The notes below the pieces were generated by a model, which had not been told where the DNA came from, did not search any database, and saw only the letters and a list, made by a program, of their open reading frames with translations. The translations under genes were made by a program, and so were the position numbers. From the NCBI GenBank assembly GCA_963834385.1, contig CAWIBO010000005.1:64001-128000 (forward strand): DNA of 64,000 nt, written 5' to 3'. Positions 3,277 to 18,266 of this stretch are shown here, piece by piece (positions within the stretch are counted from its first letter, which is position 1; every line of letters begins with the position of its first letter). The DNA comes from an uncultured Verrucomicrobiae bacterium (GTDB taxonomy: Bacteria; Verrucomicrobiota; Verrucomicrobiia; Chthoniobacterales; UBA10450).

Positions 3277-3311
3277 ATGGACGACGAAGACAAGCGCGGC
3301 ATCAGGAATAG

Positions 3312-3459
3312 CTCTAACGAGAAAAGGATAAACGACGGCGGACGACCGTGCCCGCCGTGCTACAGGCGGGGGCGCGCGTCGCTCGAAGTGGAAGGGTGGA
3401 AATCATCTCAAATGCGGAGCGCACAGCGGTCCGCCGTTCGCTCCATCGCAGGGTTAGAC
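3312..3459 (-). repeat. attC site 5 (family B with 24-nt insert)
   Basis: ctctaacgag...gacggcggac...gtccgccgttcgctc...gttagac. Confidence 0.9.
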
Positions 3460-3654
3460 GGCGACTTGCTCAAAGGAGATGTTCGGAATGTCCTCTACTC
3501 TCTTCTGAGCGTGCTCCACAGTGATCCCGCAGATGTGCCCATCCGCGTCAAGATCGAGCACCGTGTCCTCGTCGAGGTCGCGCGTCTCTGCGACATGCGC
3601 ACCACGAAACTCGATGTAGAGCGTATCAGTGTCTCGGAAGTAGCGAATCTTCAT
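3454..3654 (-). CDS. DUF2283-family putative antitoxin
   Basis: MKIRYFRDTDTLYIEF...LDLDADGHICGITVEHA; ATGA coupling to the upstream gene. Confidence 0.82.
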   Translation of the reverse strand: MKIRYFRDTDTLYIEFRGAHVAETRDLDEDTVLDLDADGHICGITVEHAQKRVEDIPNISFEQVAV

Positions 3655-3887
3655 GGACGAAATGAACGATCGAAAAAGGCGTTGTGCACGGTCTCGGCGT
3701 CGGGAAGAAGTATAACGCGCAAATAACGCCCGTCCATCTCGGCGATAGGCGCCCAACGGCGAATGCGACCGTCCTGCTGAATCTGCTCGCGCACGGGGTG
3801 GGCGACGACACGCTCGATCCACTCGAGACGAATCGCCGTGCGATCTGGCCGCTGCCGCATGACCTCAAAGTAACGCGTGAACTGCAC
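3651..3887 (-). CDS. DUF4258-like putative RNase toxin (partner of DUF2283)
   Basis: 78 aa, RYLRVILLPDAETVHNAFFDRSF; coupled to a DUF2283 gene within one cassette. Confidence 0.7.
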   Translation of the reverse strand: MQFTRYFEVMRQRPDRTAIRLEWIERVVAHPVREQIQQDGRIRRWAPIAEMDGRYLRVILLPDAETVHNAFFDRSFRP

Positions 3888-3930
3888 ATCGCAGAATAGC
3901 GCAGGCGTCGCTCACAGAAAAGACGAAGCC

Positions 3931-4224
3931 GTCTAACGAGAACAGGATAAACGACGGCGGACGACCGTGCCCGCAGTGTTACAGCGTTGCAGGCGGGGGG
4001 CGTGCGTCGCGAGGAATGGAACGGACTGGCAAGCCGTGACATAGACCTGAGGCCGAAGGCTGAACGAGTCGCGCGAGTGAATCAATGGAACGGACTGGCA
4101 AGCCGTGACATAGCCCTCAGGCCGAAGACTGAACGAGTCGCGCGAGTGAATCAATGGAAGTGTGGAAGTCATCTCAAAATATTGACGCAGAGCGGTCCGC
4201 CGTTCGCTCCATCGCCTGTTAGAC
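3931..4224 (-). repeat. attC site 6 (family B, 294 nt, two 69-nt tandem units in the loop)
   Basis: Normal boxes at both ends; units begin at 4015 and 4084. Confidence 0.9.
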
Positions 4225-4641
4225 GTTTGCGGGTGAATCGGAGTCATCGCCAAGAAAGTATAAATCAAGATCGAGCGGGATGCCTAGCGCCGTAATCCGC
4301 TGAAGGATTTCCGGCGAGAGGTGTATGCCGGGAGTAAAATCTTCGTAGTAAATGGTGCAACAGAGTTCGACGGAAAACTCTGCGGCACACTCTCGGATGC
4401 GCGCGGCGTGCGGCTCCAGCAGCGGAAGCAACGCCTCAAGATGCTTTTCAACGTGCGCCTCAAGTGAAAGTGGGCTCTGGAAGCTCCACCGACTGTGATT
4501 TCGGGTCGCTGCAGGATGTGGTGGCATCGGATCGCCGCGTCGCCAAACAGAAGTCGGTGATAAGCCCACGCGCGATGTAACAATCGAAGGATCATCGCCG
4601 AAATCGAGAACCTTCAGAAAAACGTGTGACTTGTCTGGCAC
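4219..4641 (-). CDS. Cassette: DUF4279-family protein
   Basis: DPSIVTSRVGLSPT..W..GD...LSPEILQRITALGIPLDLDLY. Confidence 0.8.
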   Translation of the reverse strand: MPDKSHVFLKVLDFGDDPSIVTSRVGLSPTSVWRRGDPMPPHPAATRNHSRWSFQSPLSLEAHVEKHLEALLPLLEPHAARIRECAAEFSVELCCTIYYEDFTPGIHLSPEILQRITALGIPLDLDLYFLGDDSDSPANV

Positions 4642-4654
4642 GGAGAGCGTTTAC

Positions 4655-4777
4655 GTCTAACGAGAGAGAAGTGAGCGACCGCCACCGGGGGCGAGCGGGG
4701 CTCGAAGTGGAAGGGTGCGAGTCATGGAAAGCCTGGACTTTCGCCGGGTGGCGGTTCGCTCGACTGACGGGTTAGGT
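4655..4777 (-). repeat. attC site 7 (family A)
   Basis: gtctaacgag...gagcgaccgccacc...ggtggcggttcgctc...gttaggt. Confidence 0.93.
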
Positions 4778-4954
4778 GGTGGACGGTGCGCGCAGGGGCA
4801 GGCCGGAACGGGCAGAGCTGGAAACCAGAGAACGGTCCGCTGCATGCGGAAGATGGAACCAGATGCTCTGGGAAAACGCGATGCCATATTCGCGCGGGTG
4901 ATCCCCTCCTACGGCGCCGCAAAAGCCGCCGCCCGCGAACGAACGCACACAACC
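4778..4954 (-). other. Short cassette without a convincing ORF
   Basis: About 177 nt between two attC sites; the ATG after GTTAG gives only 15 codons. Confidence 0.6.
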
Positions 4955-5076
4955 ATCTAACGAGAAAGAAGTGAGCGACCGCCACCGGGGGCGAGCGGGG
5001 CCGAAGTGGATGGTTCCGGGTCATGGAAAGCGAGGTCTTTCGGCGGGTGGCGGTTCGCTCGACTGGTGGGTTAGGT
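4955..5076 (-). repeat. attC site 8 (family A)
   Basis: atctaacgag...gttaggt. Confidence 0.93.
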
Positions 5077-5353
5077 GCTCTGAGTGACATGACACGCGTC
5101 GAAACACATACGATATCCAAGGCAAAGGCTGAGCAGGACAATCTTCGCGGCGGATGTAAGAACGAGAACAGTCACGTCGTCGCGCTCAAGAGAAAGCTCC
5201 ACAGCGGCGAGAGGTTCGAAGTGGGCGCAAACGACGCATGCTGGAACGATAGCGGTCTTCGCGACAGATGGAGGGCAACGAATCGGGTAGGCTGCGAACA
5301 GCAACGGGGAACGACGAGAAGCAGCCAAGTCCAATGTCCGCAGTGCGGGACAT
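5071..5353 (-). pseudogene. Cassette with a broken or uncertain ORF
   Basis: ATG at 5353 and TAA in the R'' box are in different frames. Confidence 0.4.
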
Positions 5354-5358
5354 AGCGC

Positions 5359-5481
5359 ACCTAACGAGAGAGAAGTGAGCGACCGCCACCGAGGGCGAGC
5401 GGTGCTCGAAGTGGATGGTTGCGAGTCATGGAAAGCGTGGGCTTTCAGCGGGTGGCGGTTCGCTCGACTGACGGGTTAGAT
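5359..5481 (-). repeat. attC site 9 (family A)
   Basis: acctaacgag...gttagat. Confidence 0.93.
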
Positions 5482-5765
5482 GTTTCAGCGCCAGGTACCA
5501 TCAAAAAGAGGGTGATCATCGCTCTTCGCTTCTCGCGGCGACGTCTGTCCGGCCGAACGGAGGTGTCAGGCATCGGCTCCGGAAGCGCGAGCCGTAGTTG
5601 TATGCCACTCGAGTTCGAGCGGAGCCAAGGTGCGATATAGCTGCAAATCCCACAGAAGCAGGGTGCCGACGAACGACGGCCGAATTAGGGCCGCGACGCT
5701 GGCAGGCTGTAGGTGGAAGATGCGCATACAGAAAACAGGGCGATTATCAGCGCGCGCGGTGCCAT
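5482..5765 (-). pseudogene. Cassette with an interrupted secreted-protein ORF
   Basis: MAPRALIIALFSVCASS signal-like start stops after 26 codons. Confidence 0.4.
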
Positions 5766-5888
5766 CTAACGAGAAAGAAGTGAGCGACCGCCACCGAGGG
5801 CGAGCGGGGCTCGAAGTGAAAGGTTGCGGGTCATGGAAAAGCGAGGTCTTTCGGCGCGGTGGCGGTTCGCTCGACCGATGGGTTAGAC
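5764..5888 (-). repeat. attC site 10 (family A)
   Basis: atctaacgag...gttagac. Confidence 0.93.
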
Positions 5889-6229
5889 GCTGCGGCGTCA
5901 CTCGCTGGACCGCGGACGAAGCTGCACCAAACGACGCGCAACGACTGTAGATAGCCAGTAGCGCATAGGGCCGAAAGATTGCGTCGGGAATCGCTATGAT
6001 GAAAAGCGCCGGGTGCCGAGCGTGCTCCGGCAGCCACAGAAGAGGAACCGCGAGGAAGTGATAAGCGTTCCGACTAACTGGAGGGGTCAATCGTCAGGTA
6101 TGAGTGTCAGCGACACGTCGAAACAGCGAATGACTCCTTCGACCAAGACAGGCTCGCAAATGGACGTAAAGCACTCCGGCAGCTCAGAGCGAAGATGATC
6201 AGTCGATGCGGCATCGCTCGGAGTCAGAC
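5889..6229 (-). pseudogene. Cassette with a fragmented membrane-protein ORF
   Basis: MPHRLIIFALS start stops early; hydrophobic fragments occur in other frames. Confidence 0.4.
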
Positions 6230-6359
6230 GTCTAACGACCCCAAGCTCAGCGACTGCGGAGGCGCGGCGCACCGGCTGCGGAAAGGTGGCTGGGGGCGAA
6301 GGCGGCGGGAGCAGCCGGTGTGACGCGCCGGAGCAGTTCGCTGCAGCGCATGGTTCGGC
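6230..6359 (-). repeat. attC site 11 (family C)
   Basis: gtctaacgaccccaagctcagcgac...gttcgctgcagc...gttcggc; its R'' (GCCGAAC) complements the cassette start GTTCGGC at 6756-6762. Confidence 0.9.
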
Positions 6360-6381
6360 GTTGCGGCTGTTGTCTGTGAAG

Positions 6382-6738
6382 TCATCGAGAAGCGAACAAA
6401 TCTCCGGGCAGTAGTTGGGCGGCCGCGAACGTAGCAAGAATGTTGATGAGCGCGACGACGAGCAAAACGACTGGAATCAGTGGAACGCCGACAAGCCACT
6501 CCGGGACGTGCAGACGACCGTAGAGAAAACGGTAAAGTGGTCTGCCAACTGCGATGGCTACCGTAATGTCTGCTGCGAGAAGACAGATGCCGAGGACGCT
6601 AAGCCACGAGCCCTGTGATAGCCAGAAAAGCGGGACGACTGAGGCGGCGGCAAGTGTGATGAGTAACGCCGCGAGACTGCCGACATCGGATAAACCTGCC
6701 GCTGCGAGTAACGCGGAGACAGAAACGCTTTCAGTCAT
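6382..6738 (-). CDS. Cassette: hypothetical membrane protein (about 3 TM)
   Basis: MTESVSVSALL...; hydrophobic ORF filling the cassette. Confidence 0.65.
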   Translation of the reverse strand: MTESVSVSALLAAAGLSDVGSLAALLITLAAASVVPLFWLSQGSWLSVLGICLLAADITVAIAVGRPLYRFLYGRLHVPEWLVGVPLIPVVLLVVALINILATFAAAQLLPGDLFASR

Positions 6739-6755
6739 GGGATGACGCGAGCATC

Positions 6756-6878
6756 GCCGAACGAGAGAGAAGTGAGCGACCGCCACCGAGGGCGAGCGGG
6801 GCTCGAAGTAGAAGGGTACGGGTCATGGAAAGCGAGGTCTTTCGGCGGGTGGCGGTTCGCTCGACTGATGGGTTAGAT
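6756..6878 (-). repeat. attC site 12 (family A)
   Basis: gccgaacgag...gttagat. Confidence 0.93.
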
Positions 6879-6897
6879 GTTGCGGCGCCGTAAGAGC

Positions 6898-7110
6898 TCA
6901 TCGACGTGACAGGTGGTTCTGCCGCAGCCGCCATATTCCGAGAGCCGTAATGAGAATGGCGACGATACCAGTAGGGAAAATCCATGCGCTGATCCTCGGT
7001 TCTGTGAAAAAGAGGTAGAAAAGCACAAACAATCCGGGGACTGGGGCAAGTGCAGCGGCCCAAAGCGCTGGCTGACGCGAAGGAGTCTCAGTGGTCGGTG
7101 GCATGCTCAC
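6898..7110 (-). CDS. Cassette: small 2-TM membrane protein
   Basis: 70-aa ORF filling the cassette, two hydrophobic segments. Confidence 0.65.
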   Translation of the reverse strand: MSMPPTTETPSRQPALWAAALAPVPGLFVLFYLFFTEPRISAWIFPTGIVAILITALGIWRLRQNHLSRR

Positions 7111-7113
7111 TAC

Positions 7114-7236
7114 ATCTAACGAGAGGGAAGTGAGCGACCGCCACCGGGGGCGGGCGTCGCTCGAAGTGGAAGGTTGCGAGTCATGGAAAGCGTAGGCTCT
7201 CGGCGGGTGGCGGTTCGCTCGACTGATGGGTTAGGT
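7114..7236 (-). repeat. attC site 13 (family A)
   Basis: atctaacgag...gttaggt. Confidence 0.93.
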
Positions 7237-7698
7237 GTCTGGACGGTCATTCTCGCAGTGCAAACTATACACGATCGGAATGCGAATATCTTGCGGCGTT
7301 CCCTGCCGCAACCGCCAACGATGAAGAGTGTCTTCAACAGCATGCGTAAGCCAGGCAGGCGCAGTGCTGCGAAGAACCCTAGTCTGGCTCACCGCACCGT
7401 TGGTCGTGACGCGTAGCTGCACAAGCATGGTCGGCTCTAGGTATCGAAGACGCGCCGCATATGGGTAAGGCGGAAGCGGTGCATACTCGGCGTAGGTCGG
7501 CCTCGGAACACGGCGGACATGAGCAGGCGATCGTTGAGGGGGCGGCGCGTAGCCAGGGTCCCCCACTAGCGAGCAATCCAGCGTAGGAACCGCCCGCCCG
7601 CAAACGAATAACGGAGGCATCGTGGCGACGTTGATCGTATTGACGCCGGTGCAGGCACCAATTAGGCACGCGAACATAACAGCCGCGGCGCGTGTCAT
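7231..7698 (-). CDS. Cassette: TonB C-terminal-domain lipoprotein
   Basis: Lipobox-like IGAC; PPYPYAAR...VQLRVTTNGAV...VLRST...RWR TonB_C pattern. Confidence 0.7.
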   Translation of the reverse strand: MTRAAAVMFACLIGACTGVNTINVATMPPLFVCGRAVPTLDCSLVGDPGYAPPPQRSPAHVRRVPRPTYAEYAPLPPYPYAARLRYLEPTMLVQLRVTTNGAVSQTRVLRSTAPAWLTHAVEDTLHRWRLRQGTPQDIRIPIVYSLHCENDRPDT

Positions 7699-7700
7699 AC

Positions 7701-7824
7701 ACCTAACGAGAAAAAGATGAGCGACGGCGGACGAGGGCGTCCGTCGCTCGCAGTGGGATTGCTGAAGTCATCTCAAAAGTTAATCGCACAGCGGTCCGCC
7801 GTTCGCTCCATCGCATGGTTAGGT
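7701..7824 (-). repeat. attC site 14 (family B)
   Basis: acctaacgag...gacggcggac...gttaggt. Confidence 0.93.
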
Positions 7825-7825
7825 C

Positions 7826-8287
7826 TCAGCGAACGGGCTCCGGCTTCCTGGTGAAGGTCGGTAACTGCGCGATCACTTCGAGAAGGCGATCTACGTCCGC
7901 TTGCTGCTTCGCGGCGACCCAAATGTTTGCCTTCCAATAGTCATTGAGCTTGATCACGGCCTCTTGCATTACAGAGCCGTCGCTTGCGACGGCTCTGTGC
8001 CACTCCACCGAAAAAATGCCAAGCTTCCCCGACACGACCTTACTGTCCGGCTCGGGAGTGAAGTCTGGCCAGCCGCCAAGATAGAAGCCAACGTAGCCGA
8101 CAAGCGGAGGATTCGCGTGGCCGTAATAAACGTCGAAGTCAGGTCCTCTCACTTTTGTCCACGTGAATGCTTTCGGCGACACGGGTCCGAGAAACTTGGA
8201 CAGTTCTTTCGGCGCGATCGGCTCGCCGGGTTGCTGAGTGGCCGCAATGCTCGAGACGAAAAGCGATACGAATAGGAGCGCGCGCAT
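7826..8287 (-). CDS. Cassette: hypothetical secreted protein
   Basis: Signal peptide MRALLFVSLFVSSIAA; ORF fills the cassette. Confidence 0.75.
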   Translation of the reverse strand: MRALLFVSLFVSSIAATQQPGEPIAPKELSKFLGPVSPKAFTWTKVRGPDFDVYYGHANPPLVGYVGFYLGGWPDFTPEPDSKVVSGKLGIFSVEWHRAVASDGSVMQEAVIKLNDYWKANIWVAAKQQADVDRLLEVIAQLPTFTRKPEPVR

Positions 8288-8290
8288 AAG

Positions 8291-8413
8291 ACCTAACGAG
8301 ACAGAAGTGAGGTGCCGCCACCGAGAGCGAGCGTGGCTCGAAGTGATAGTGGTTTAGTCATGGAAAACGTGAACGCTCGGCGGGTGGCGGTTACCTCGAC
8401 TGATTGGTTAGAT
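8291..8413 (-). repeat. attC site 15 (family A variant)
   Basis: gaggtgccgccacc pairs with ggtggcggttacctc (compensatory changes). Confidence 0.92.
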
Positions 8414-8663
8414 CTGACATCACCAGCCCCGCGGTGCCTTCGAGGGTGAAGCTTGGTAACGGAAACAGATCCATTCGTAATTTTACGCCGGGATAATTGA
8501 GAGCGGCGTGGAGATGACCGCGCAAGGCGGCGTCGCTTCGTGTGCGAACTGGGGGGCGGCCGTCCAGGGCGAATATAGAAGCGTTAAAGGTGGGCTCGAT
8601 CCCAAACGCTGTCAGCGATGAGCTTGTAAGCACAACTAGAAAAAGGATGGATGACCAGTGCAT
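8391..8663 (-). CDS. Cassette: hypothetical secreted protein (reads into attC)
   Basis: Signal-like MHWSSILFLVVLTSSSLTA; ATG overlaps GTTAGATG. Confidence 0.55.
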   Translation of the reverse strand: MHWSSILFLVVLTSSSLTAFGIEPTFNASIFALDGRPPVRTRSDAALRGHLHAALNYPGVKLRMDLFPLPSFTLEGTAGLVMSDLTNQSR

Positions 8664-8784
8664 CTAACGAGAGAGAAGTGAGCGACCGCCACCGAGGGCG
8701 AGCGGGGCTCGAAGTGGATGGTCCCGAGTCATGGAATGCGAGGTCTTTCTGCGGGTGGCGGTTCGCTCGACTGACATGTTAGAC
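8662..8784 (-). repeat. attC site 16 (family A)
   Basis: atctaacgag...gttagac. Confidence 0.93.
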
Positions 8785-9042
8785 CTTCGCGCGTCGCTGA
8801 CCAAACGCCTTCTGGAAAGAAGCTAGGTGCAAGCGAAGCTCCTGCCACTTTCTGGTGCTCCGTTTCGGGGGCACCGGGAGATCCGGCCCGATGAAGACGC
8901 AACGTGCACAACACTGAGGGCACTTAACGCGACCGGCACCGATCGTGCCTACCTGCTCGGGGTAAAGCTGCGTGACTAAGCGAAAGGTCTCGGACCTCAC
9001 TCCAATGCGGCAATCGAAGCACACCCAGTTCCCGCGGCACAT
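8779..9042 (-). CDS. Cassette: small zinc-ribbon protein
   Basis: CFDC...CPQC pairs followed by G..LPVPPKR...W. Confidence 0.72.
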   Translation of the reverse strand: MCRGNWVCFDCRIGVRSETFRLVTQLYPEQVGTIGAGRVKCPQCCARCVFIGPDLPVPPKRSTRKWQELRLHLASFQKAFGQRRAKV

Positions 9043-9046
9043 GTGG

Positions 9047-9169
9047 GTCTAACGAGAGAGAAGTGAGCGACCGCCACCGAGGGCGAACGGTGCTCGAAGT
9101 GAATGGATGCGAGTCATGAAAAGCGTGATCGCAGAGCGGTCCGCGGTTCGCTGCATCGCCTGGTTAGAC
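9047..9169 (-). repeat. attC site 17 (family A/B chimera)
   Basis: Left half gcgaccgccacc (A); right half gcagagcggtccgc...catcgcctggttag (B). Confidence 0.88.
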
Positions 9170-9478
9170 GATTGGGCCTCGCTCATGAATCCAAGCACGC
9201 CACTCCTCCAGGACCTCTACGATCTTCTCTGCGTGTTTGCGCGCATCGTCCACTTGAGAAAGCGCCATCGTCTCAAGCTGTGTGCTGACGAGGAACTCGA
9301 CAATATCGCCGGCTGGTGCGTGTGACTGCAACAGCGAAAAGACACGCGGGAGATACGCATGATACTCGTCGCGCGCCTGCGGCACTTGCGCCACGCCGAT
9401 GGGATCCCACAGATAGTGCAGGACCTCATCCACACGCCGATACAGCTCTCTCTGCTCGGGCGGCAACTTTTGTCCCAT
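9164..9478 (-). CDS. Cassette: conserved hypothetical protein (WDPIG...DEY motif, DUF1871-like)
   Basis: VDEVLHYLWDPIGV...ARDEYHAYLP. Confidence 0.72.
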   Translation of the reverse strand: MGQKLPPEQRELYRRVDEVLHYLWDPIGVAQVPQARDEYHAYLPRVFSLLQSHAPAGDIVEFLVSTQLETMALSQVDDARKHAEKIVEVLEEWRAWIHERGPIV

Positions 9479-9488
9479 GCGCGGAATC

Positions 9489-9614
9489 GTCTAACGACCC
9501 AAGCTCAGCGACAGGCGGAGTGGGCGCGGCTCCTGCCGGTGGGTGGAAGGGCGGCGGTCGTCTGCCGCAGGAGCCGTGACCGCGGAGCCTGTTCGCTGCA
9601 GTGCATGGTTAGGC
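9489..9614 (-). repeat. attC site 18 (family C)
   Basis: gtctaacgacccaagctcagcgac...gttcgctgcagtgcatggttaggc. Confidence 0.9.
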
Positions 9615-9648
9615 GATGCGGCCGATTGCAGTGCGATCTTGAAGCCAC

Positions 9649-10035
9649 TCAGCTCTCATACATATGGTAGGTTTTGGCGATGATGCGCCAAGCGCCGTCA
9701 AGTTTGATGAGGGTGTGAAAGTCGGTGTAGTCCGCGCCGATGGCGTCCTTCTCCATGTCCACGCGCACCACTGCCGTCGTGGGCGTGATCGCCAACACGT
9801 CGATCCGCGTCTGAATGTCGGGGGCAGTGCCGTTGGCGGCAACGAAGTCGTAGAGATTCTTGATCGGGCCGCCGAGTAACTCGCCGTTGGTGAAGCCATA
9901 CATCACAGCGTCCTGATGGAAGGCTTCGCCGAGGCCAGCGACGTTTCCGACGCGCAGCCCGTCGACGTATTTGGTGACCGTCGCGACGACGTCTGCATAA
10001 TCTTGAGTGGGCACGGTTTTGATGTTTTTTGTCAT
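9649..10035 (-). CDS. Cassette: NTF2-like (lumazine-binding-like) protein, copy 1
   Basis: MTKNIK...AFHQDAVMYG...YTDFHTLIKLDGAWRIIAKTYH. Confidence 0.85.
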   Translation of the reverse strand: MTKNIKTVPTQDYADVVATVTKYVDGLRVGNVAGLGEAFHQDAVMYGFTNGELLGGPIKNLYDFVAANGTAPDIQTRIDVLAITPTTAVVRVDMEKDAIGADYTDFHTLIKLDGAWRIIAKTYHMYES

Positions 10036-10113
10036 GAGATTGATTTTGGTGTGATGGTCGGAGAAACTAGAGGGTGGCAAAAATTGGCTTCATGTTCGGT
10101 GAGCGCGAGCAGC

Positions 10114-10236
10114 GCCTAACGAGAACAAGATGAGCGACCGCCACCGGGGGCGAGCGTCGATCGGAGGTGGATTGACTTAGTCATGGAAAATGTGGAGCGA
10201 AGCGGGTAGGCGTTCGCTGCATTGCCTTGGTTAGGC
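10114..10236 (-). repeat. attC site 19
   Basis: gcctaacgag...gttaggc; near-identical to 13072-13198. Confidence 0.9.
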
Positions 10237-10252
10237 GGCATTGAAGTCAAGC

Positions 10253-10666
10253 TTATCGTGGTGGAAATGCGCCGAGCTGCATCATCAGACCGAGGGCATC
10301 CATGATGATGCGCGTGTCTTTGATTTTGCCGGCCTCAAGCCGGTCAATGACCACGCCCCACACCCTGACTGGGCGTCCGGTGGCGGGCACGCCAAAAAAC
10401 TCCGCCTTGTGCGTTCCCGTCCACTCGAAGCGTGTCATCACCTTGTCGCCTTCGGTAATCTGTTCCTCGACCGTCCAGTGCATGTCTGGAAACGCGGCCC
10501 GCATGCCACGCAAGACGTTTTTCAAACCGGCCAAGCCTGGTCCTTGCCCGGGAAGCGGAACGTGCTCCACCATATCCTCCCAAAAGAACTGCCCAGCGGC
10601 GTCGATATTCCCTTGGCTTAAAACTTCCTCAACGAAACTTCGGACAATGTTGCTGTTACTTTGCAT
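10253..10666 (-). CDS. Cassette: SnoaL-like ester cyclase, copy 1
   Basis: AAFPDMHWTVEEQI.EGDKV.TR...GTH...FFGVPATGR. Confidence 0.9.
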   Translation of the reverse strand: MQSNSNIVRSFVEEVLSQGNIDAAGQFFWEDMVEHVPLPGQGPGLAGLKNVLRGMRAAFPDMHWTVEEQITEGDKVMTRFEWTGTHKAEFFGVPATGRPVRVWGVVIDRLEAGKIKDTRIIMDALGLMMQLGAFPPR

Positions 10667-10682
10667 AAATGGTGGTGTTGCC

Positions 10683-10791
10683 GCCTAACGAGAACAAGAT
10701 GAGCCACCGCGCAAATTACGAGGGGCTTTCGTGATGCAAAAAAATCTGGGCATACGGACGGTCCGCGGTGGGCTCCATCGCACGGTTAGGT
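10683..10791 (-). repeat. attC site 20 (family D)
   Basis: gcctaacgag...gagccaccgcg...cgcggtgggctc...gttaggt. Confidence 0.9.
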
Positions 10792-10803
10792 GCACGTGTG
10801 GCT

Positions 10804-11250
10804 TCATCGCAACGGTCGGAATGATGAAACATTAGTAAGCTCGGCCGGCGACAGACCCATGTGACCGAATCCAAGCGCCGTAACGGACTCGAACTCTCGA
10901 CCATCGTCGCGCTTCAGAATCTCGCGACGAATTTCGGGGCGATAATGAAATAGGCCGACGACTCGCACATATCGATTGGAGAGTCGGCTCACTCTCCTCC
11001 ATCCGGGTGAGACCCAAATGCTGCACGAAAATATGCCGCCCGCCGGAGCATGATCGCAATGGCCATCCGGCGAAGTATAAAGGCTGGTCTCTTCCAGGTC
11101 CGATACGTAATAGCCGATGACCGCGATGCGCTTGCCGACGAAATCGCCCGGCCGCGCGAAAAGCTCCGCGACGGTGACGTCGCCCTTCTGACGTTTCGCC
11201 GTGCAACCGGGTAGAAGCAGGACCAGGCTGATGTAGCAAACAAGCCTCAT
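10804..11250 (-). CDS. Cassette: hypothetical lipoprotein (OB-fold-like)
   Basis: Lipobox LPGC; TVAELFARPGDFVGKRIAVIGY. Confidence 0.72.
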   Translation of the reverse strand: MRLVCYISLVLLLPGCTAKRQKGDVTVAELFARPGDFVGKRIAVIGYYVSDLEETSLYTSPDGHCDHAPAGGIFSCSIWVSPGWRRVSRLSNRYVRVVGLFHYRPEIRREILKRDDGREFESVTALGFGHMGLSPAELTNVSSFRPLR

Positions 11251-11252
11251 GC

Positions 11253-11369
11253 ACCTAGAGAAGTGATCGACCGCCACCGGGGGCGAGCGGTGCTCGAAGT
11301 GGAAGGTTGTGGGTCATGGAAAGCGAGGTCTTTCGGCGGGTGGCGGTTCGCTCGACTGACAGGTTAGCT
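11253..11369 (-). repeat. attC site 21 (family A, R' core deleted)
   Basis: cctagagaagtga versus consensus cctaacgagagagaagtga (6 nt missing). Confidence 0.85.
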
Positions 11370-11824
11370 CATTCTACGTAGCGTCGGCTCGACAACAGTG
11401 CCGTCAAAATGGCATCAGAATCGACGGTCGCGGATCCGCCTCGGCTAAACCTCGCCCTCAAGGATGGGAGAGACAGATGAACTCATAAAACCACCTTACT
11501 AGAGACCATGGCGCGCCCTCGCCGAGGCTATATCTCTCTGACTTCGCCAGCTCGATCTTGATGATGGCGATATCGTCAGCTTCCGGCGAACGGCGCTTGC
11601 CGGCTGTCCTTTGCGTATCCGTGTGGCGGCTCGTGATCGTGAGCGGTGGATCTTGTGCGCCAGGCGCCCAATCTGGAGTGCGGCTCAGCGTATCGATGTC
11701 CGTCACATACTGGACGCGCTTGCCCCTGGCATCGGTCATATCAGAGAGGACCACCCGCGACGGCCCCTGTTCTTGACGACCACGCAGGCGTAGCGGCGAG
11801 AATCAGGAGCAACAGTGCGCGCAT
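11364..11824 (-). pseudogene. Cassette: frameshifted secreted protein
   Basis: Signal MRALLLLILAATPAWS; PDWAPGAQDPPL in a second frame; C-terminal DGTVVEP. Confidence 0.6.
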
Positions 11825-11826
11825 AG

Positions 11827-11950
11827 AGCTAACGAGAACAAGATGAGCGACGGCGGACGAGGGCGCGCGTCGCTCGGAGTGGAAGGGTGGAAGTCATCTC
11901 AAAAGTGGCGCGCACAGCGGTCCGCCGTTCGCTCCATCGCATGGTTAGGC
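11827..11950 (-). repeat. attC site 22 (family B, basic form)
   Basis: agctaacgag...gttaggc. Confidence 0.93.
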
Positions 11951-12278
11951 CTCGCGCGTGACATCGGGTAAATCATCTATAGAATCCGCCGACGCGAAGC
12001 ACGCGACATAGTCAATGTCTTCGACTGGCTCATCGTACCCTTTCGATCTCATAGGCTTCAGCCTCAGCAGGGACCAAAGCAGCCAAATCTGGGGGCATGA
12101 CCCAATACGTATCGTCTCCCTTGCCTTCGACGCGAACCAGCAGTCCGCCGACTTCGGCAGACTCGATGACGCCGCAAAACGCAGTGAATGTCTCTTTGCC
12201 ATCGCCACTGATATCGCGAAGACTGACCAGAACACGCTTGCCAATAAAACGTTCAGCAAGTTGTGGCGTGTATTCCAT
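11945..12278 (-). CDS. Cassette: hypothetical protein, frameshift near 12045
   Basis: MEYTPQLAERFIGKRVLV...MPPDL continues as GYDEPVEDIDY in another frame to the stop in R''. Confidence 0.6.
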
Positions 12279-12280
12279 GG

Positions 12281-12572
12281 GCCTAACGAGAACAAGATGA
12301 GCGACGGCGGACGACCGTGCCCGCCGTGTTACAGCGTTGCAGGCGGGGAGCGCGTCGCGAGGAATGGAACGGACTGGCAAGCCGTGACATAGACCTGAGG
12401 CCGAAGGTTGAACGAGTCGCGCGAGTGAATCAATGGAACGGACTGGCAAGCCGTGACATAGACCTGAAGCCCGAAGGCTGAAGGAGTCGCGCGAGTGAAT
12501 CAATGGAGGGTGGAAATCATCTCAAAGTGGCGCGCACGGCGGTCCGCCGTTCGCTCAATCGCATGGTTAGGC
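12281..12572 (-). repeat. attC site 23 (family B, 292 nt, two 69/70-nt tandem units)
   Basis: Same inserts as 3931-4224; units begin at 12363 and 12432. Confidence 0.9.
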
Positions 12573-12606
12573 GATGCGGCCGATTGCAGTGCGATCATGA
12601 AGCCAT

Positions 12607-12993
12607 TCAGCCCTCATACATGTGGTAGGTTTTGGCGATGATGCGCCAAGCGCCGTCAAGTTTGATGAGGGTGTGGAAGTCGGTGTAGTCCGCGCCGATG
12701 GCGTCCTTCTCCATGTCCACGCGCACCACTGCCGTCGTGGGCGTGATCGCCAACACGTCGATCCGCGTCTGAATGTCGGGGGCAGTGCCGTTGGCGGCAA
12801 CGAAGTCGTAGAGATTCTTGATCGGGCCGCCGAGTAACTCGCCGTTGGTGAAGCCATACATCACAGCGTCCTGATGGAAGGCTTCGCCGAGGCCAGCGAC
12901 GTTTCCGACGCGCAGCCCGTCGACGTATTTGGTGACCGTCGCGACGACGTCTGCATAATCTTGAGTGGGCACGGTTTTGATGTTTTTTGTCAT
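12607..12993 (-). CDS. Cassette: NTF2-like protein, copy 2
   Basis: Near-identical to 9649-10035 (ends YEG rather than YES). Confidence 0.85.
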   Translation of the reverse strand: MTKNIKTVPTQDYADVVATVTKYVDGLRVGNVAGLGEAFHQDAVMYGFTNGELLGGPIKNLYDFVAANGTAPDIQTRIDVLAITPTTAVVRVDMEKDAIGADYTDFHTLIKLDGAWRIIAKTYHMYEG

Positions 12994-13071
12994 GAGATTG
13001 ATTTTGGTGTGGTGGTCGGAGAAACTAGAGGGTAGCAAAAATTGGCTTCATGTTCGGTGAGCGCGAGCAGC

Positions 13072-13198
13072 GCCTAACGAGAACAAGAAACGAGCGACCG
13101 CCACCGGGGGCGAGCGTCGATCGGAGGTGAATTGACTTAGTCATGGAAAGTGTGGAGCGAACAGCGGGTAGGCGTTCGCTGCATTGCCTTGGTTAGGC
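13072..13198 (-). repeat. attC site 24
   Basis: Near-identical to 10114-10236. Confidence 0.9.
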
Positions 13199-13214
13199 GG
13201 CATTGAAGTCAAGC

Positions 13215-13628
13215 TTATCGTGGTGGAAATGCGCCGAGCTGCATCATCAGACCGAGGGCATCCATGATGATGCGCGTGTCTTTAATTTTGCCGGCCTCAA
13301 GCCGGTCAATGACCACGCCCCACACCCTGACTGGGCGTCCGGTGGCGGGCACGCCAAAAAACTCCGCCTTGTGCGTTCCCGTCCACTCGAAACGTGTCAT
13401 CACCTTGTCGCCTTCGGCAATCTGTTCCTCGACCGTCCAGTGCATGTCTGGAAACGCGGCCCGCATGCCACGCAAGACGTCTTTCAAACCGGCCAAGCCT
13501 GGTCCTTGCCCGGGAAGCGGAACGTGCTCCACCATATCCTCCCAAAAGAACTGCCCAGCGGCGTCGATTTTCCCTTGGCTTAGAACTTCCTCAACGAAAC
13601 TTCGGACAATGTTGCTGTTACTTTGCAT
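13215..13628 (-). CDS. Cassette: SnoaL-like ester cyclase, copy 2
   Basis: Three amino-acid differences from 10253-10666. Confidence 0.9.
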   Translation of the reverse strand: MQSNSNIVRSFVEEVLSQGKIDAAGQFFWEDMVEHVPLPGQGPGLAGLKDVLRGMRAAFPDMHWTVEEQIAEGDKVMTRFEWTGTHKAEFFGVPATGRPVRVWGVVIDRLEAGKIKDTRIIMDALGLMMQLGAFPPR

Positions 13629-13644
13629 GAATGGTGGTGTTGCC

Positions 13645-13713
13645 GCCTAACGACGAGTGGAGCGATGAGTCGGAGCGAAGCGGAGACTCATTCGCTCACA
13701 CGATTTGTTAGGC
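13645..13713 (-). repeat. attC site 25 (short, 69 nt, unique)
   Basis: gcctaac...gagcgatgagtc...gactcattcgctc...gttaggc. Confidence 0.9.
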
Positions 13714-14157
13714 CGCGTTCGAGAGGCGCTTGCGAAACACTCGCTGCGTCTTGGTGTGTCGAAAGGATAAACTCTCATAAAACTTGTGGGACTCTGCGCG
13801 CTCCTCACGGCAACGCACAGACAAGTCTACAGCTCCGCGCTCCACCGCCCAACCCTCAACTGACTGAACTAATCGCCGCCCAATGCCACTCCGCCGCCAT
13901 CGCTCGTCGACAATCAAGCCGCCAATCTCCACACGAAAGTCCGACTCCAAAAGCTGGCAAAGATAACCGTGAATCCAGCCTGCTAACTCCCCGCCTGGCA
14001 CTTCGGCCACCATAAGGCGGTCATCTTCCACTCCAAACATCCGCTCCATGCGCACCCGTATCGCCGCCTCGGAGACCGGATAGCCGAGTTGTGAAGTCAA
14101 CCGCGCCAACTCTGCTGCGTCCGATTCAACAGCTTGTCTGATTATCGGCTGGGACAT
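13708..14157 (-). CDS. Cassette: GNAT N-acetyltransferase
   Basis: LIVDERWRRSGIG acetyl-CoA motif A; SHKFYESLSF. Confidence 0.9.
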   Translation of the reverse strand: MSQPIIRQAVESDAAELARLTSQLGYPVSEAAIRVRMERMFGVEDDRLMVAEVPGGELAGWIHGYLCQLLESDFRVEIGGLIVDERWRRSGIGRRLVQSVEGWAVERGAVDLSVRCREERAESHKFYESLSFRHTKTQRVFRKRLSNAA

Positions 14158-14165
14158 ACGAAGCG

Positions 14166-14289
14166 GCCTAACGAGAACAAGATGAGCGACGGCGGACGAG
14201 GGCGCGCGTCGCTCGGAGTGGAAGGGTGAAAGTCATCTCAAAAGTGGCGCGCACCGCGGTCCGCCGTTCGCTCCATCGCATGGTTAGGC
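14166..14289 (-). repeat. attC site 26 (family B)
   Basis: Near-identical to 11827-11950. Confidence 0.93.
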
Positions 14290-14298
14290 CTGGGCGTG

Positions 14299-14715
14299 CT
14301 ATCGCGCTGGACGTCGAAGAATATTGTCATAATCGCCGTGCGCGATCTTCTGTGCAATGACCCGCACCTGATCGTCTGACCCGATGCAGCCGATCATCGT
14401 CTCGACGCGGTCCTCGCGGGATGTGAAGGCAGGAAGAGCCTGCGTAAAGGCAGCGGCGTCGCTGAGCCGCAGGCCAAGAAGTGCGTAGAGCTGACCCGCG
14501 GGCGATGCCGAATCGACGAGTCGCCGAAACGTCGCAACACGATCAGCCTGGCCGAGCGCCGCGCGAAGAGCGTGCTCTCCGTCGGAGGTGCGGGCACCAT
14601 CGCTGATGGGACCGACCGCAAAGAATGCGGCCCGCTCCAAGCTCGGCTTCTCCTTAGCGGCAACGTGCAGCACGGCGCAGGTCGTAAGCACGAGTAGAAG
14701 CGCAACGCGGTGCAT
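14299..14715 (-). CDS. Cassette: hypothetical secreted protein
   Basis: Signal peptide; ASPAGQLYALLGL...TMIGCI. Confidence 0.75.
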   Translation of the reverse strand: MHRVALLLVLTTCAVLHVAAKEKPSLERAAFFAVGPISDGARTSDGEHALRAALGQADRVATFRRLVDSASPAGQLYALLGLRLSDAAAFTQALPAFTSREDRVETMIGCIGSDDQVRVIAQKIAHGDYDNILRRPAR

Positions 14716-14717
14716 AG

Positions 14718-14841
14718 GCCTAACGAGAACAAGATGAGCGACGGCGGACGGGAGCGCGCGTCGGTCGGATTAAAAGTGTGAAAGTCATCTTAAAAGTGGC
14801 GCGCACCGCGGTCCGCCGTTCGCTCGATCGCTGGGTTAGGT
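14718..14841 (-). repeat. attC site 27 (family B)
   Basis: gcctaacgag...gttaggt. Confidence 0.93.
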
Positions 14842-15272
14842 GACAGCTTCCATAGCTCACGGGCTCTCGAGATATATTCCATTTGGTGCGGATCGCTCTG
14901 CGGCTGGATGAAGGTGAGAAAGTCGAGAAGCGCTTGTCTCTGCGCAGCCGTGTATCCGCCGGTCGGCTGGAAACGAAACTCGTCGCTGAGGGAATAGAGG
15001 AGAAACTGCGTAACGGTAGACTCTGGATCGCGGGCGGCGACTCGCAGGTATGCGGGCAGATAATAACGCTTCGCGTCGTCTGACATGAACACAAGCTGGT
15101 CGAAGCTGCGCTTGACCCAATCGTCTGCAAGCTCCTCTGGCGTGCGACCACGTAAATCGCCTCGCAGCGTGTCGCACTCGTCGCAATGGTGCGGCACCAA
15201 CGCGTCATCTGCGGGAGCGGCCGCACTGGAGAAGGCCTCGCGAATCTGCTGCATGAGGTCGTCGTATGACAT
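14790..15272 (-). CDS. Cassette: DUF6714-like protein (reads into attC)
   Basis: IREAF...HCDEC...FMSDDAKRYYLPAYL...QRQALLDFL. Confidence 0.72.
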   Translation of the reverse strand: MSYDDLMQQIREAFSSAAAPADDALVPHHCDECDTLRGDLRGRTPEELADDWVKRSFDQLVFMSDDAKRYYLPAYLRVAARDPESTVTQFLLYSLSDEFRFQPTGGYTAAQRQALLDFLTFIQPQSDPHQMEYISRARELWKLSPNPAIERTADRGARHF

Positions 15273-15284
15273 GACGCGGCTGTC

Positions 15285-15398
15285 ACCTAACGAGAGAGAA
15301 GTGAGCGACCGCCACCGAGGGCGAGCGGTGCTCGAAGTGGAAGGTTTCGAGTCATGGAAAGCGTGGCTTTCGGCGGGTGGCGGTTCGCTCGACTGATA
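15285..15398 (-). repeat. attC site 28, main part (interrupted by IS; remainder at 16901-16908)
   Basis: Family A sequence stops at cgactgata and resumes as ggttagatc after the IS. Confidence 0.9.
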
Positions 15399-15443
15399 GA
15401 TGGCATGAAGAGAAGCGGGTGAGCGGTTTAGACTCACCCGCTT

Positions 15444-16547
15444 ATGCTTAAAACAATCGTTCATCACGAAGGGGTCCGCTCACTCGAGCGAACCGGAACA
15501 AGGATAAAGGGCGCGCCCGCGCAGATCAAGATCGGTCTGGACGTGCACGCGCAGGTGTACGTGGCCGTGGCGCAATACGATCAGCTGCTGCCCAAGGCGG
15601 CGCGACGCTTTGCCCCCAGCGAGTTTGTCCCCTGGGTGGAGGGCCTGCTGCGGGCCGGTCATCAGGTCTACGTCGTCTACGAGGCGTGCGGGTTTGGGTT
15701 CACTCTCTACCGGCAGCTTAAGGCGGCCGGAGCGCACTGCTACGTTATCGCGCCGCGCAAGCTGGACGAGCAATGCACCCGGGTGAAAACCGATCCGCGC
15801 GATGCCACCACGCTGTGCCAGCGTCTTTCGCGTTACTGCGAAGGCAACACGCGCGAGCTGGCCGTCATCCGGGTCCCGAGCGAGGAGGAGGAACAGGCCC
15901 GGCACGTCTCGCGTCAGCGGGAGCAACTGGTGCATCATCGCCAGAAGATGGAAGCGCAGGGGCGCGGCCTCCTGGTCAGTCATGCCTTGCCGGCCCCGGC
16001 GCACTGGTGGAAGAACCAGACCTGGAGCCGGCTGCAAAAGCATCTCCCGGAGTGGGTGGTGGCGCGCCTGGCGGTCTATCGACCGGCGCTTTTGGCGTTG
16101 CAGGATCAGATCAGCCAGCTGGGCGTTGCCCTGGAAGCGGCCGCGCCTGAGTCGATCCCGGTCGGGTTGGGCAAATTGACCACGGTGGTGCTGACCCGCG
16201 AGATCTGTGACTGGCACCGGTTCAACAATCGGCGGGTGATCAGTTCCTATACCGGGCTCTGTCCGGGCGAACGCTCCAGCGGCAGCAAACGGGTGCCGGG
16301 AAGTGTGACCAAGCGGGGCAACCCGCGGGTGCGCGCGGCGCTCGTGGAGTGCGCCTGGCGGATGGTGCGTTTCCAGCCGCAATACCCGCCGGTGGCGAAA
16401 CGACTGGCAATCCTAGCCAAAGGTTCACGGGCCACCGGCGCCGTGCGCAAGAAGGCGATCGTGGCCGTGGCACGCCACCTGGCCGTCGATCTCTGGCGCA
16501 TCCACACCGGCCGCATGACCCCGGAAGCCATCGGACTAAAGATTTGA
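15444..16547 (+). CDS. IS110-family DEDD transposase/recombinase
   Basis: GLDVH, YEACG and KTDPRDA (DEDD) plus SYTGLCPGERSSG...TKRGN C-terminal domain. Confidence 0.95.
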   Translation: MLKTIVHHEGVRSLERTGTRIKGAPAQIKIGLDVHAQVYVAVAQYDQLLPKAARRFAPSEFVPWVEGLLRAGHQVYVVYEACGFGFTLYRQLKAAGAHCYVIAPRKLDEQCTRVKTDPRDATTLCQRLSRYCEGNTRELAVIRVPSEEEEQARHVSRQREQLVHHRQKMEAQGRGLLVSHALPAPAHWWKNQTWSRLQKHLPEWVVARLAVYRPALLALQDQISQLGVALEAAAPESIPVGLGKLTTVVLTREICDWHRFNNRRVISSYTGLCPGERSSGSKRVPGSVTKRGNPRVRAALVECAWRMVRFQPQYPPVAKRLAILAKGSRATGAVRKKAIVAVARHLAVDLWRIHTGRMTPEAIGLKI

Positions 16548-16889
16548 TGCTTTCATGAAAGCGAAAGGAACCAAAGTTATTCGAGGGGAACAGTTCATCA
16601 CCGCAGTCGCATAACCCTTTGGAACGTGGCGCGTGTCCGGGATCTAACCTGAACCGTGCTATGACGAGCTTCGTCGCCATAGATTGGGCCGCGCCCACGT
16701 TCCGCTTCAGTTGGACGGCATAAGTCACTTTGCGCTGCGGCAAATATCCCGCATGCGCGGATAGGAGTATCAGCCGCTGAAGAATCTCAGCGCGCAACAA
16801 GAAGCGGAAACGTTCTAAAAGAATCACGCCAACCAACACGCCATCAAACCAATGACTTAATTACCAATTTCCCCACTCACTCGTTGACA
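16548..16889 (+). ncRNA. Candidate bridge/seek RNA region of the IS
   Basis: About 340-nt non-coding end with several stems; GATCTAACCT (16641-16650) is complementary to the reconstituted target; RNA boundaries unknown. Confidence 0.65.
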
Positions 16890-16945
16890 CTCTTCATAGG
16901 GGTTAGATCGTTTAGCGTGCGATAACATTCGGCTCGGCAATACTG

Positions 16946-17140
16946 CTACTTCGGCGCCCTCTTGTGGTTGTCTGCTCGGCGAACGCGCCTGGAGCCGTCT
17001 ACGAGCAGCGCGACTCCTACCAGCACAAGCGCAAAAGAGATCGCGGCCTGCTGCCAATATCGCGGAGCCAATGTCGGTAGCAGAAACCCCATCATCAGAA
17101 GCCCGATGAAAAATTCGATAGCGCCTATAAACGTCCTCAT
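16946..17140 (-). CDS. First cassette: small 2-TM membrane protein
   Basis: ATG directly after the attI GTTAGATC; two hydrophobic helices. Confidence 0.7.
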   Translation of the reverse strand: MRTFIGAIEFFIGLLMMGFLLPTLAPRYWQQAAISFALVLVGVALLVDGSRRVRRADNHKRAPK

Positions 17141-17141
17141 G

Positions 17142-17195
17142 ATCTAACGAGAAGTAGATTGAATTATTGCGTCTTGTAAGGCGCAATAATTCTGT
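17142..17195 (-). other. attI recombination site and adjacent palindrome
   Basis: GTTAGAT (minus, 17148-17142) with no attC partner arm, between the first cassette and intI; complements the first cassette's R''. Confidence 0.8.
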
Positions 17196-17243
17196 ATAAA
17201 ACGATTGCCTACCGGGACAAAAGTCGGATAAAAGCGTGGTGTC

Positions 17244-18266
17244 ATGACAACTCCCGTTCTACCTGACCCAGCGCCGCCTGCCAAGCCGAAAAAGCTTCTC
17301 GACCAGGTCCGCGATGTCCTCCGCCTGCATCATTACAGTCTGCGGACCGAGCGGAGTTACTGCGACTGGATTGAGCGGTTCATCCGGTTCCATGGAAAAC
17401 GGCACCCGGCGGAAATGGGGGAGGCCGAGATCACGGCTTTCCTGACGCATTTGGCCGCGGAGCGCAACGTCGCGGCCGCGACCCAAAACCAGGCCATGAG
17501 CGCCCTGCTGTTTCTCTACAAACAGGTGCTCAAAGCGGAGATCGGCTGGCTCGATGGCGTGGAGCGCGTCTCGCGGCCGCCCCGGCTCCCGGTGGTCTTG
17601 AGCAAGGAGGAGGTGGCGGCGCTTTTCCAGCATCTCACGGGCACGCCCCGGCTCATGGCCGGGTTGCTCTACGGAAGCGGGCTTCGCCTGATGGAATGCG
17701 TGCGATTGCGCGTTAAGGACATCGATTTTGCCTATGCCACGATCATGGTCCGCGACGGCAAAGGGAACAAGGACCGCGTCACGATGTTGCCGGTGAACCT
17801 GGCCCAGCCGCTGGAGCGGCACCTGGCCAAGGTCAAAGCGCAACATGCGGAGGACTTGGCGGAAGGTTTTGGCGAGGTGTATCTCCCGCATGCGTTGGCG
17901 GTCAAATATCCAACCGCCGCCCGCGAATGGTCGTGGCAGTACACGTTTCCGTCGTCGCGGCTTTCGCTCGATCCGCGGGCCGACGCGACCGGGGACGAGG
18001 GACCGGTGAAACGGCGGCGGCATCATCTGGCGGAAAGTTTATTGCAACAGGCGATCAAGAAAGCGGTGCGGGCGGCGGGGCTGACCAAGCCGGCGAGCTG
18101 TCACACCCTGCGGCATTCGTTTGCCACGCATCTGCTGGAGAACGGCTACGACATCCGGACGGTGCAGGAGTTGCTCGGGCACAAGGATGTGAGCACGACG
18201 ATGATTTACACGCACGTGCTCAACCGGCCGGGGATCGGGGTGAGGAGTCCGATGGATGGGCGATGA
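17244..18266 (+). CDS. intI: Integron integrase (tyrosine recombinase)
   Basis: [32 protein letters not shown] and TMIYTH motifs plus the IntI-specific insertion ([12 protein letters not shown]...W.WQYTFP). Confidence 0.98.

Follow-up and report, generated by a model that had tools for sequence, protein, structure and literature searches.

An IS1111-type insertion sequence in a Verrucomicrobial integron attC site and a candidate guide RNA that covaries with its target

Introduction

In a stretch of 64,000 nucleotides (nt) of DNA from an uncultured Verrucomicrobiae bacterium (contig CAWIBO010000005.1, positions 64,001 to 128,000 of the forward strand; hereafter the window), the recombination site (attC) of a chromosomal integron cassette is split by an insert. 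This insert, at window positions 15398-16900, is very probably an intact insertion sequence (IS) of the IS1111 type (IS110 superfamily), which would move as a circle with abutted ends and would be directed to its target by an RNA from the region downstream of the transposase gene. Strong evidence for the guide within this RNA comes from related insertions, in which two bases of an RNA loop change in step with the bases beside the insertion point, and from a diverged relative that differs in both its loop and its position.

IS1111 elements that target attC were reportedly described in 2008-2009, by Tetu and Holmes in 2008 and by Post and Hall in 2009.

ISKpn4, ISPst6 and ISPa25 target attC (Siddiquee 2024, PMC11187229). 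In ISKpn4 and ISPst6, a seekRNA derived from downstream non-coding sequence is co-purified with the transposase and carries a match to the target's top strand 5' of a match to the bottom strand; ISPa25, 46% identical in protein, retains the same target matches (PMC11187229). Elements of the IS1111 type that target attC and have proven seekRNAs are thus known already (Siddiquee 2024), and what is new here is the lineage only. No description of Verrucomicrobial elements of this kind was found in the titles and abstracts of the papers on seekRNA with IS1111, on IS1111-attC and on bridge RNA that a search of a paper library listed.

Results

A protein search at E up to 0.001 gave 3740 proteins, and the element was compared with 130 related loci, 50 from genome contigs and 80 kept of 190 from metagenome contigs (loci are given L numbers where they have to be told apart). 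Their sources are Verrucomicrobial (Udaeobacter/Chthoniobacterales) genome bins and soil metagenomes. A conserved RNA motif is present in 119 of 131 loci, the window included, and the copies that bear it all lie in one orientation at attC-like sites, as orientation-specific insertion at an attC end would have it. Distinct left flanks end in TAG in 92 of 96 cases and distinct right flanks start with GGGTTAG in 85 of 93, the other eight being GAGTTAG (two), GAGATGG (two, the circular contigs described below), AGGTTAG, GTGGTTA, GGGGTTA and GGGCTAG.

The non-coding regions of the relatives align well. In the first RNA module the outer stem leads into a 4-bp helix (16635-16638/16686-16689), and this into an internal loop with an inner hairpin. 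Folding of 16621-16703 gave a z score of -4.52, with none of 200 shuffles equally stable, and the minimum-energy fold contains the stem 16621-16633/16690-16703 as well as the inner hairpin CUAUG...CAUAG, both of which had been proposed in an earlier interpretation made from the letters of this DNA (the sequence-only reading). In 56 of 68 distinct RNAs all positions of the 4-bp helix (GUCC/GGGC in the window copy) are paired, and five Watson-Crick types occur (GUCC/GGAC, GCUC/GAGC, GUUC/GAAC, GCCC/GGGC and GUGC/GCAC).

On its 5' side the family loop reads GG-NN-CUAACC-U, followed by the inner hairpin of variable sequence. CUAACC is invariant in the family and complementary to GGTTAG, and the two bases 5' of it vary, being AU, GC, AC or GU. 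Among 89 distinct insertions, these variable bases are the Watson-Crick partners of the first and the second base after TTAG in 81 and 70 cases, respectively. Shuffled pairings of guide and flank gave 46.1 and 43.6 matches, and not one of 10,000 shuffles reached either observed value. The third base (G16641 in the window) matched in 16 of 89 insertions against 17.8 expected and thus did not covary. Because two bases covary and the third shows nothing, we place the guide at 16642-16649. Six of its eight bases face the invariant attC core, and covariation is informative for the remaining two only. A loop segment complementary to the target and covarying with it beside the crossover, as in a seekRNA or bridge RNA, was found.

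A guide complementary to the target in the 3' non-coding end had been the central proposal of the sequence-only reading, and it stands. Its details needed revision. The ten-base string GATCTAACCT is indeed present at 16641-16650, and eight of its bases (16642-16649) are backed by conservation or covariation, but G16641 is not. The complementarity to the target was likewise confirmed, but not its position across the insertion point: since the element starts at 15398 (see below), the complementary stretch abuts that point instead of spanning it.

Further support is provided by a diverged relative whose 3' end, terminating in ...TTGACAACCCTCATAGG, was found in the left flanks of three loci (L086, 240-656; L117, 240-657; L120, 90-504). 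At the same loop position this relative carries GAUGAAGC, and it lies beside GCTTCATC in L086 or GCTCCATC in L117 and L120. Its insertion point is 14 nt to the left of the other, within the L' half of the same attC, so that two related elements are stacked in one attC. Judged by these sequences, the GAUGAAGC relative is a case of natural retargeting and offers independent support for the guide.

One could argue that the protein mainly recognises the folded attC or its core, and that the complementarity of the RNA is a by-product of the conserved GGTTAG. This would agree with the six guide bases that covariation cannot test and with the fact that no RNA reading of the left side of the target could be demonstrated. 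However, the two variable guide bases track the flank, the relative with a different loop sits at a different, matching attC position, and movement of the published relatives needs the RNA (Siddiquee 2024, PMC11187229). We therefore consider recognition mainly by protein very improbable and retain the RNA guide as the preferred explanation.

The limits of the element were established from two relatives' metagenome contigs, L105 (1642 nt) and L108 (1621 nt), which are circular or tandem assemblies with 127-nt terminal overlaps. Their element units measure 1515 and 1494 nt, respectively, with the ends abutted as CATAGG|AGATGG, and may possibly represent a circular transposition intermediate caught in metagenomes. 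This junction equals the longest right-end string plus the longest left-end string shared by the integrated junctions, with no remainder; hence the element is AGATGG...CATAGG, that is, 15398-16900 of the window. Among 61 distinct unoccupied attC ends (window and loci), T|GGTTAG occurs in 28, and AG precedes GTTAG in only two. The unoccupied ...CCAGCGATT|GGTTAGACC of L099, L004 and L018 is letter for letter the occupied flank of L075. The empty site of the window copy is thus ...GAT|GGTTAGATC. As is usual for IS1111 elements, no target is duplicated and the circle has abutted ends: the flanks rejoin to T|GGTTAG, and the circles were seen in the relatives L105 and L108. Five DNA sequencing runs with small shares of this DNA were listed, and four of them yielded short contigs; these added two right junctions from near-identical copies but showed neither a circle junction nor an empty site for the window copy. 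The sequence-only reading had been one base off throughout, placing the element at 15399-16900, the restored site at ...GATA|GGTTAGATC and the circle junction at CATAGG|GATGG. A core AG with a 20-nt empty site, an empty site with AG before GTTAG, and a start at 15399 were also considered, and each fails to account jointly for the observed junctions, the circular junctions and the unoccupied forms.

The ends and the transposase are of IS1111 type. IS1111 elements reach past their repeats by 7 bp at the left end and by 3 bp at the right end (Siddiquee 2024, PMC11187229), and the same extensions, AGATGGC and AGG, are found here. The subterminal repeat is a perfect match of 8 bp with a further imperfect match beyond a gap, the usual length in IS1111 being 11-13 bp. 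The transposase matches PF01548 (E 1.9e-9) and PF02371 (E 2.9e-18), as well as the NCBIfam model NF033542, 'IS110 family RNA-guided transposase', with 183.5 bits against a cut-off of 140. Its translation contains GLCPGERSSG, which agrees with the motif GL-P----S(t)G given for the C-terminal domain of IS1111-type enzymes (PMC11187229, section 6), and it has a conserved N-terminal extension of 29 amino acids. As in other IS1111 elements, the longer non-coding region lies downstream of the gene, with 353 nt against 46 nt upstream. An IS1111-type element in an attC site, as the sequence-only reading had it, is thus borne out by the transposase, the ends and the attC flanks.

That reading had gone further, proposing that the hexamer GAACCG, directly after the ten-base string, is a second guide segment. 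A continuous 16-nt guide (16641-16656) would then read GGTTAGATC and, further left on the same strand, CGGTTC, with the variable bases between them looped out. Both complementarities are present in the window copy, with GAACCG at 16651-16656 and CGGTTC at 15381-15386, and three other GAACCG copies (L039, L115 and L126) have CGGTTC 20-21 nt from the junction. However, the left box does not follow the hexamer when the hexamer varies. Across 96 distinct left flanks there are 19 hexamer types, the commonest being GAACCG (27), GGTCCG (21), GGTTGC (11) and GGTTCG (10), and CGGTTC was found in four of the 27 flanks of GAACCG copies and in seven of the 69 flanks of the others (Fisher p 0.50). In none of these 69 does the left flank contain the complement of the copy's own hexamer, and the mean best complementarity between hexamer and flank was 4.07 of 6 against 4.00 after shuffling, a value reached by 593 of 5000 shuffles. 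The box motif is missing from 42 of the 96 flanks by a strict script pattern, several of the 42 being box-like by eye, and there are occupied sites without such a box (e.g. L009, L026, L033 and L085).

What the hexamer does instead is apparent from its pairing within the RNA. In 64 of 66 distinct RNAs, its first three bases are paired with the three that precede a conserved GUCGC, and the pairs change in a compensatory way (GAA/UUC, GGU/ACC, GCA/UGC, GCU/AGC, GGG/CCC and GAU/AUC); none of 5000 partner shuffles attained the observed value. Because of these compensatory changes, we assign the hexamer to the base of the inner helix. The match to CGGTTC is not more than chance, we give the continuous 16-nt guide almost no credence, and the claim of a new programmable-recombinase variant, which depended on a split same-strand guide, falls with it. 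In the window subtype, the GAA/UUC helix competes with a hairpin GACGA/UCGUC that the minimum-energy fold favours. The window pairing CUAUG/CAUAG stands in place of the UAAA/UUUA of the closest relatives; the only explanation we can offer is that the exchange keeps the hairpin paired.

On the 3' side of the internal loop, UAGAUU is found in every copy from which the loop was extracted, although the script pattern required this motif and the count is not independent. UAGAU equals the left junction T|AGAT (T from the flank, AGAT from the element) in all copies, and GAUU equals the commonest left target, GATT.

The second RNA module folds with a z score of -2.97, three of 200 shuffles being equally stable, and is conserved across the family. 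Its candidate donor guide, AUAGGAG, is nearly invariant and is kept in the diverged relative. ACGUUC occurs twice in this region, and GGAACGU (16621-16627) can therefore pair at 16697-16703 or at 16809-16815, closing either the first module alone or both modules; the family consensus fold took the long-range closure.

Candidates for a right-donor guide were sought among the exact 6-mers of the joined ends, and CCGCUUC/AGAAGCGG and GCCAUC were rejected for want of covariation or conservation. GACGGCAU, which resembles the left end in the same sense, changes in step in one copy (L113) and fails to do so in at least four. The sequence-only reading had also suggested that ACGCCATC near 16838 complements the left end; the match is not more than chance, and the stretch is not conserved among relatives. 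TTGACA does lie just inside the right repeat, as that reading had noted. Neither the window nor the sequence spanning the natural junction of L108 showed a sigma-70-like -10 at the right spacing after it.

The two bases to the right of the crossover differ between target (GG) and donor (AG), and in the usual product the left junction carries AG and the right junction GG. A few variants read ...TTGG|ATGG at the left (L077) or CATAG|GAGTTAG at the right (L042 and L080). The GG of L077 and the AG of L042 and L080 would be expected after an exchange with a 2-nt stagger over a mismatched core, but natural attC variants would give them too. Further junction variants are AGGTTAG (L010) and GTGGTTAG (L078 and L127), both at the right, and an extra G (L065). 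For the junction variants as a whole, three origins can be considered: variation among attC sites, errors of sequencing within G runs, and a staggered exchange over unequal cores that left its traces.

The integron occupies 3300-18266 of the window, with intI on the + strand and the cassette array running leftwards on the - strand. The array comprises at least about 17 cassettes, and its attC repeat family has 17 + strand ends of the form GC(G/C)GTTCGCT...GTTAG and 18 partner ends on the - strand. Two attC subtypes are present, ...CGACTGA.GGGTTAG and ...CCATCGCATGGTTAG. It is the attC of the first cassette beside intI (open reading frame 16946-17140, - strand) that the 1.5-kb insert splits. 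The IS is a single copy in its own genome and is oriented against cassette transcription; placed in the first attC, it may cut off expression of the array. The features are collected in Table 1.

Table 1. Features of the element and of the interrupted integron site, in window coordinates
Feature	Coordinates	Strand	Basis
Larger part of the interrupted attC	15285..15397	- (cassette orientation)	Terminates at the - strand R' core, GTTAGGT; repeat family seen again along the array
Complete insertion sequence of 1503 nt, without target duplication	15398..16900	+	Relatives' circular contigs, unoccupied T|GGTTAG attC ends, family-wide junctions
Left terminal extension AGATGGC, 7 nt, outside the inverted repeat	15398..15404	+	Sequence
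Left subterminal inverted repeat ATGAAGAG	15405..15412	+	Reverse complement of 16890-16897
Transposase gene, 367 amino acids, DEDD/RuvC-like N-terminal and PF02371 C-terminal domain, GLCPGERSSG	15444..16547	+	Pfam, NCBIfam, translation
First RNA module, target-binding loop, seekRNA-like, 83 nt	16621..16703	+	Fold z -4.52; family alignment and consensus fold
Target guide AUCUAACC	16642..16649	+	Pairs with + strand GGTTAGAT at 16901-16908, directly right of the element; covariation
GAACCG, no guide; as 5' strand, GAA (16651-16653) pairs with UUC (16670-16672) in the helix that closes the inner hairpin	16651..16656	+	No link to left flank; compensatory pairing
Internal loop, 3' side: CAUAGAUU, where most relatives have UUUAGAUU; candidate bottom-strand guide	16678..16685	+	UAGAUU in extracted copies
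Second RNA module, candidate for donor binding; CCGCUUC (16702-16708) and GAAGCGG (16801-16807) close its multi-branch loop	16702..16816	+	Fold, conservation
AUAGGAG, candidate donor guide	16761..16767	+	Equals top strand of joined ends ATAGG|AG, match -5 to +2
TTGACA just inside the right repeat; candidate -35 of a junction promoter	16884..16889	+	Invariant in family
Right subterminal inverted repeat CTCTTCAT (16890-16897) and 3-nt extension AGG	16890..16900	+	Sequence, relatives' circular contigs
Small part of the interrupted attC	16901..16908	-	R'' core, ATCTAAC on the - strand
Integron integrase gene	17244..18266	+	TIGR02249, 468.7 bits against a cut-off of 265

Some loci depart from the common pattern. 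A left flank ...CACAGCCTCTCGCATAG without the usual L' box recurs in L026 and L033 (exact) and in L009 and L085 (close variants), and the element subtype that occupies it differs from genome to genome; it seems to be another type of preferred site. L005, L072, L087 and L094, which come from different samples, share a left flank that is not attC-like, ...AAAGAAGATAGAGGCT(T/G)..., with no recognisable element end upstream. The transposases of L044-L047 (Hydrogenedentota, Pedosphaera and Verrucomicrobia subdivision 3) are only 43-44% identical, and these loci are without the CUAAC loop motif.

Discussion

In the mechanism that we propose for this element, AUCUAACC on the 5' side of the loop would pair with GGTTAGAT, immediately to the right of the crossover T|GG at the R'' end of attC. 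Six of the guide bases would read the conserved attC core, while variation of the outer two would adapt individual copies to particular subsets of these sites. The second module, whose AUAGGAG matches the joined ends CATAGG|AGATGG, probably holds the donor, and the element would move as a circle with abutted ends. From the published relatives we infer that this RNA is produced, that the transposase binds it and that the element cannot move without it.

Several observations weigh against this account. An Rfam scan of 15000-17400 found no family at E up to 1, and a run search listed no RNA sequencing run for the window DNA. The relatives that supplied the circular junctions, L105 and L108, are about 74-75% identical in protein and are not the window copy, and the empty site of the window copy falls one base short of the sister attCs closest to it (CGACTGAT-G-GGTTAG). 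The transposase has 367 amino acids against the 330-350 quoted for IS1111, which is a typical range and not a strict criterion. On the donor side, a junction-spanning match of 7 nt in a region of 333 nt would be expected by chance in about one case in four (a rough estimate), and since the match alone is not rare, the donor reading rests on the invariance and position of AUAGGAG; no right-donor guide was found by comparing 6-mers shared with the joined ends across the family. On the target side, the bottom-strand guide of the published two-strand layout is not demonstrable, UAGAUU being invariant in the extracted copies, and GATT precedes the crossover at 29 of 94 occupied against four of 28 unoccupied T|GGTTAG sites, a difference that is not significant (p 0.095).

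This last point bears on the role of UAGAUU, which might read the left junction (the product, or the substrate for excision) and not the empty target, so that the target would be read on one strand only. The identity of UAGAU with T|AGAT in every copy examined would fit such a role, as would the scarcity of GATT at occupied sites and the need for correct flanks in excision (PMC11187229). On the other hand, UAGAUU shows no variation by which the idea could be tested, its GAUU also equals the commonest left target, and published IS1111 seekRNAs match both target strands (PMC11187229). A left-junction role is unlikely in our view, and we continue to regard UAGAUU as a candidate bottom-strand guide.

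The element resembles the IS1111-attC group (ISKpn4, ISPst6, ISPa21 and ISPa25) in its IS1111-type ends, its transposase and its 3' non-coding RNA. Like the members of that group, it uses one end of attC in one orientation without duplication, and a segment on the 5' side of its loop pairs with the top strand to the right of the insertion and covers the TAAC core. Compared by eye, the non-coding sequence of ISKpn4 (PMC11187229, Supplementary Table 1) shows the same order of GGCC, GAUAACAAU, hairpin, UUUGAACGCUU and GGCC. Where ISKpn4 has GAUAACAAU, the guide of the window element is ..CUAACC, and by eye the guide runs 3 nt past TAAC in ISKpn4 and 1 nt in the window element; the crossover point probably differs by a few bases between the two.

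What sets the window element apart from this group is a distant transposase of 367 amino acids and a host with a chromosomal integron, a soil Verrucomicrobial bacterium. In a collection of 72,556 plasmid records, the best protein match was 37% identical, too low for ISKpn4-like copies to be told apart there, and no DNA match to the element was found. Based on this best plasmid-borne match, the transposase probably represents a lineage separate from the ISKpn4/ISPst6/ISPa25 group.

Similarities to the bridge RNA of IS621 are also evident (Durrant 2024, PMC11208160; Hiraizumi 2024, PMC11208158). Both have two looped modules, one for the target and one for the joined ends, the guide adjoins the crossover in both, and a left-type donor guide reaches 2 nt past the crossover (ATAGG|AG here). 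However, the RNA is encoded in the right end of the window element and in the left end of IS621. Unlike in IS621, the 5' side of the loop carries the top-strand guide, a multi-branch loop contains the candidate donor bases, and the right-donor guide was not found. Donor-binding bases of many IS1111 members have been placed in a multi-loop (Durrant 2024, PMC11208160), a remark that AUAGGAG in the multi-branch second module fits. The core also differs, with AG in the donor and GG in the target here against the same CT in both for IS621. A layout that truly departs from IS621, with the target read on one strand by an 8-9-nt guide, UAGAUU matching the left junction and an unequal core AG/GG, is distinctly unlikely in our judgement; if it were true, it would mean an RNA-guided recombinase that tolerates or exploits a non-identical core.

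Natural redirection has been described for ISEc11 and ISXne4 (PMC11187229), and the variants of the two outer guide bases and the L086-type relative are comparable to it, as both the target-detecting part of the RNA and the targets differ. In contrast to ISEc11/ISXne4, redirection here does not leave the attC, leading from its R'' end to its L' half, or concerns two bases only.

Taken together, with ISKpn4 compared by eye, the element probably works like ISKpn4-type seekRNA elements and the IS621 bridge RNA, and belongs to a distant, apparently undescribed Verrucomicrobial lineage. A new mechanism is not shown by this locus. Its significance lies elsewhere. IS110/IS1111 RNA-guided recombinases are under development as genome-editing tools, and elements that target integrons influence the expression of cassette arrays. 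To these, a well-populated soil lineage is added, with its 130 related loci and 89 distinct insertions, in which the sequences themselves display both a natural reprogramming of two guide bases and a relative that has been retargeted. The collection provides a data set for testing the number of guide bases that such enzymes really need and whether the cores of donor and target must be identical.

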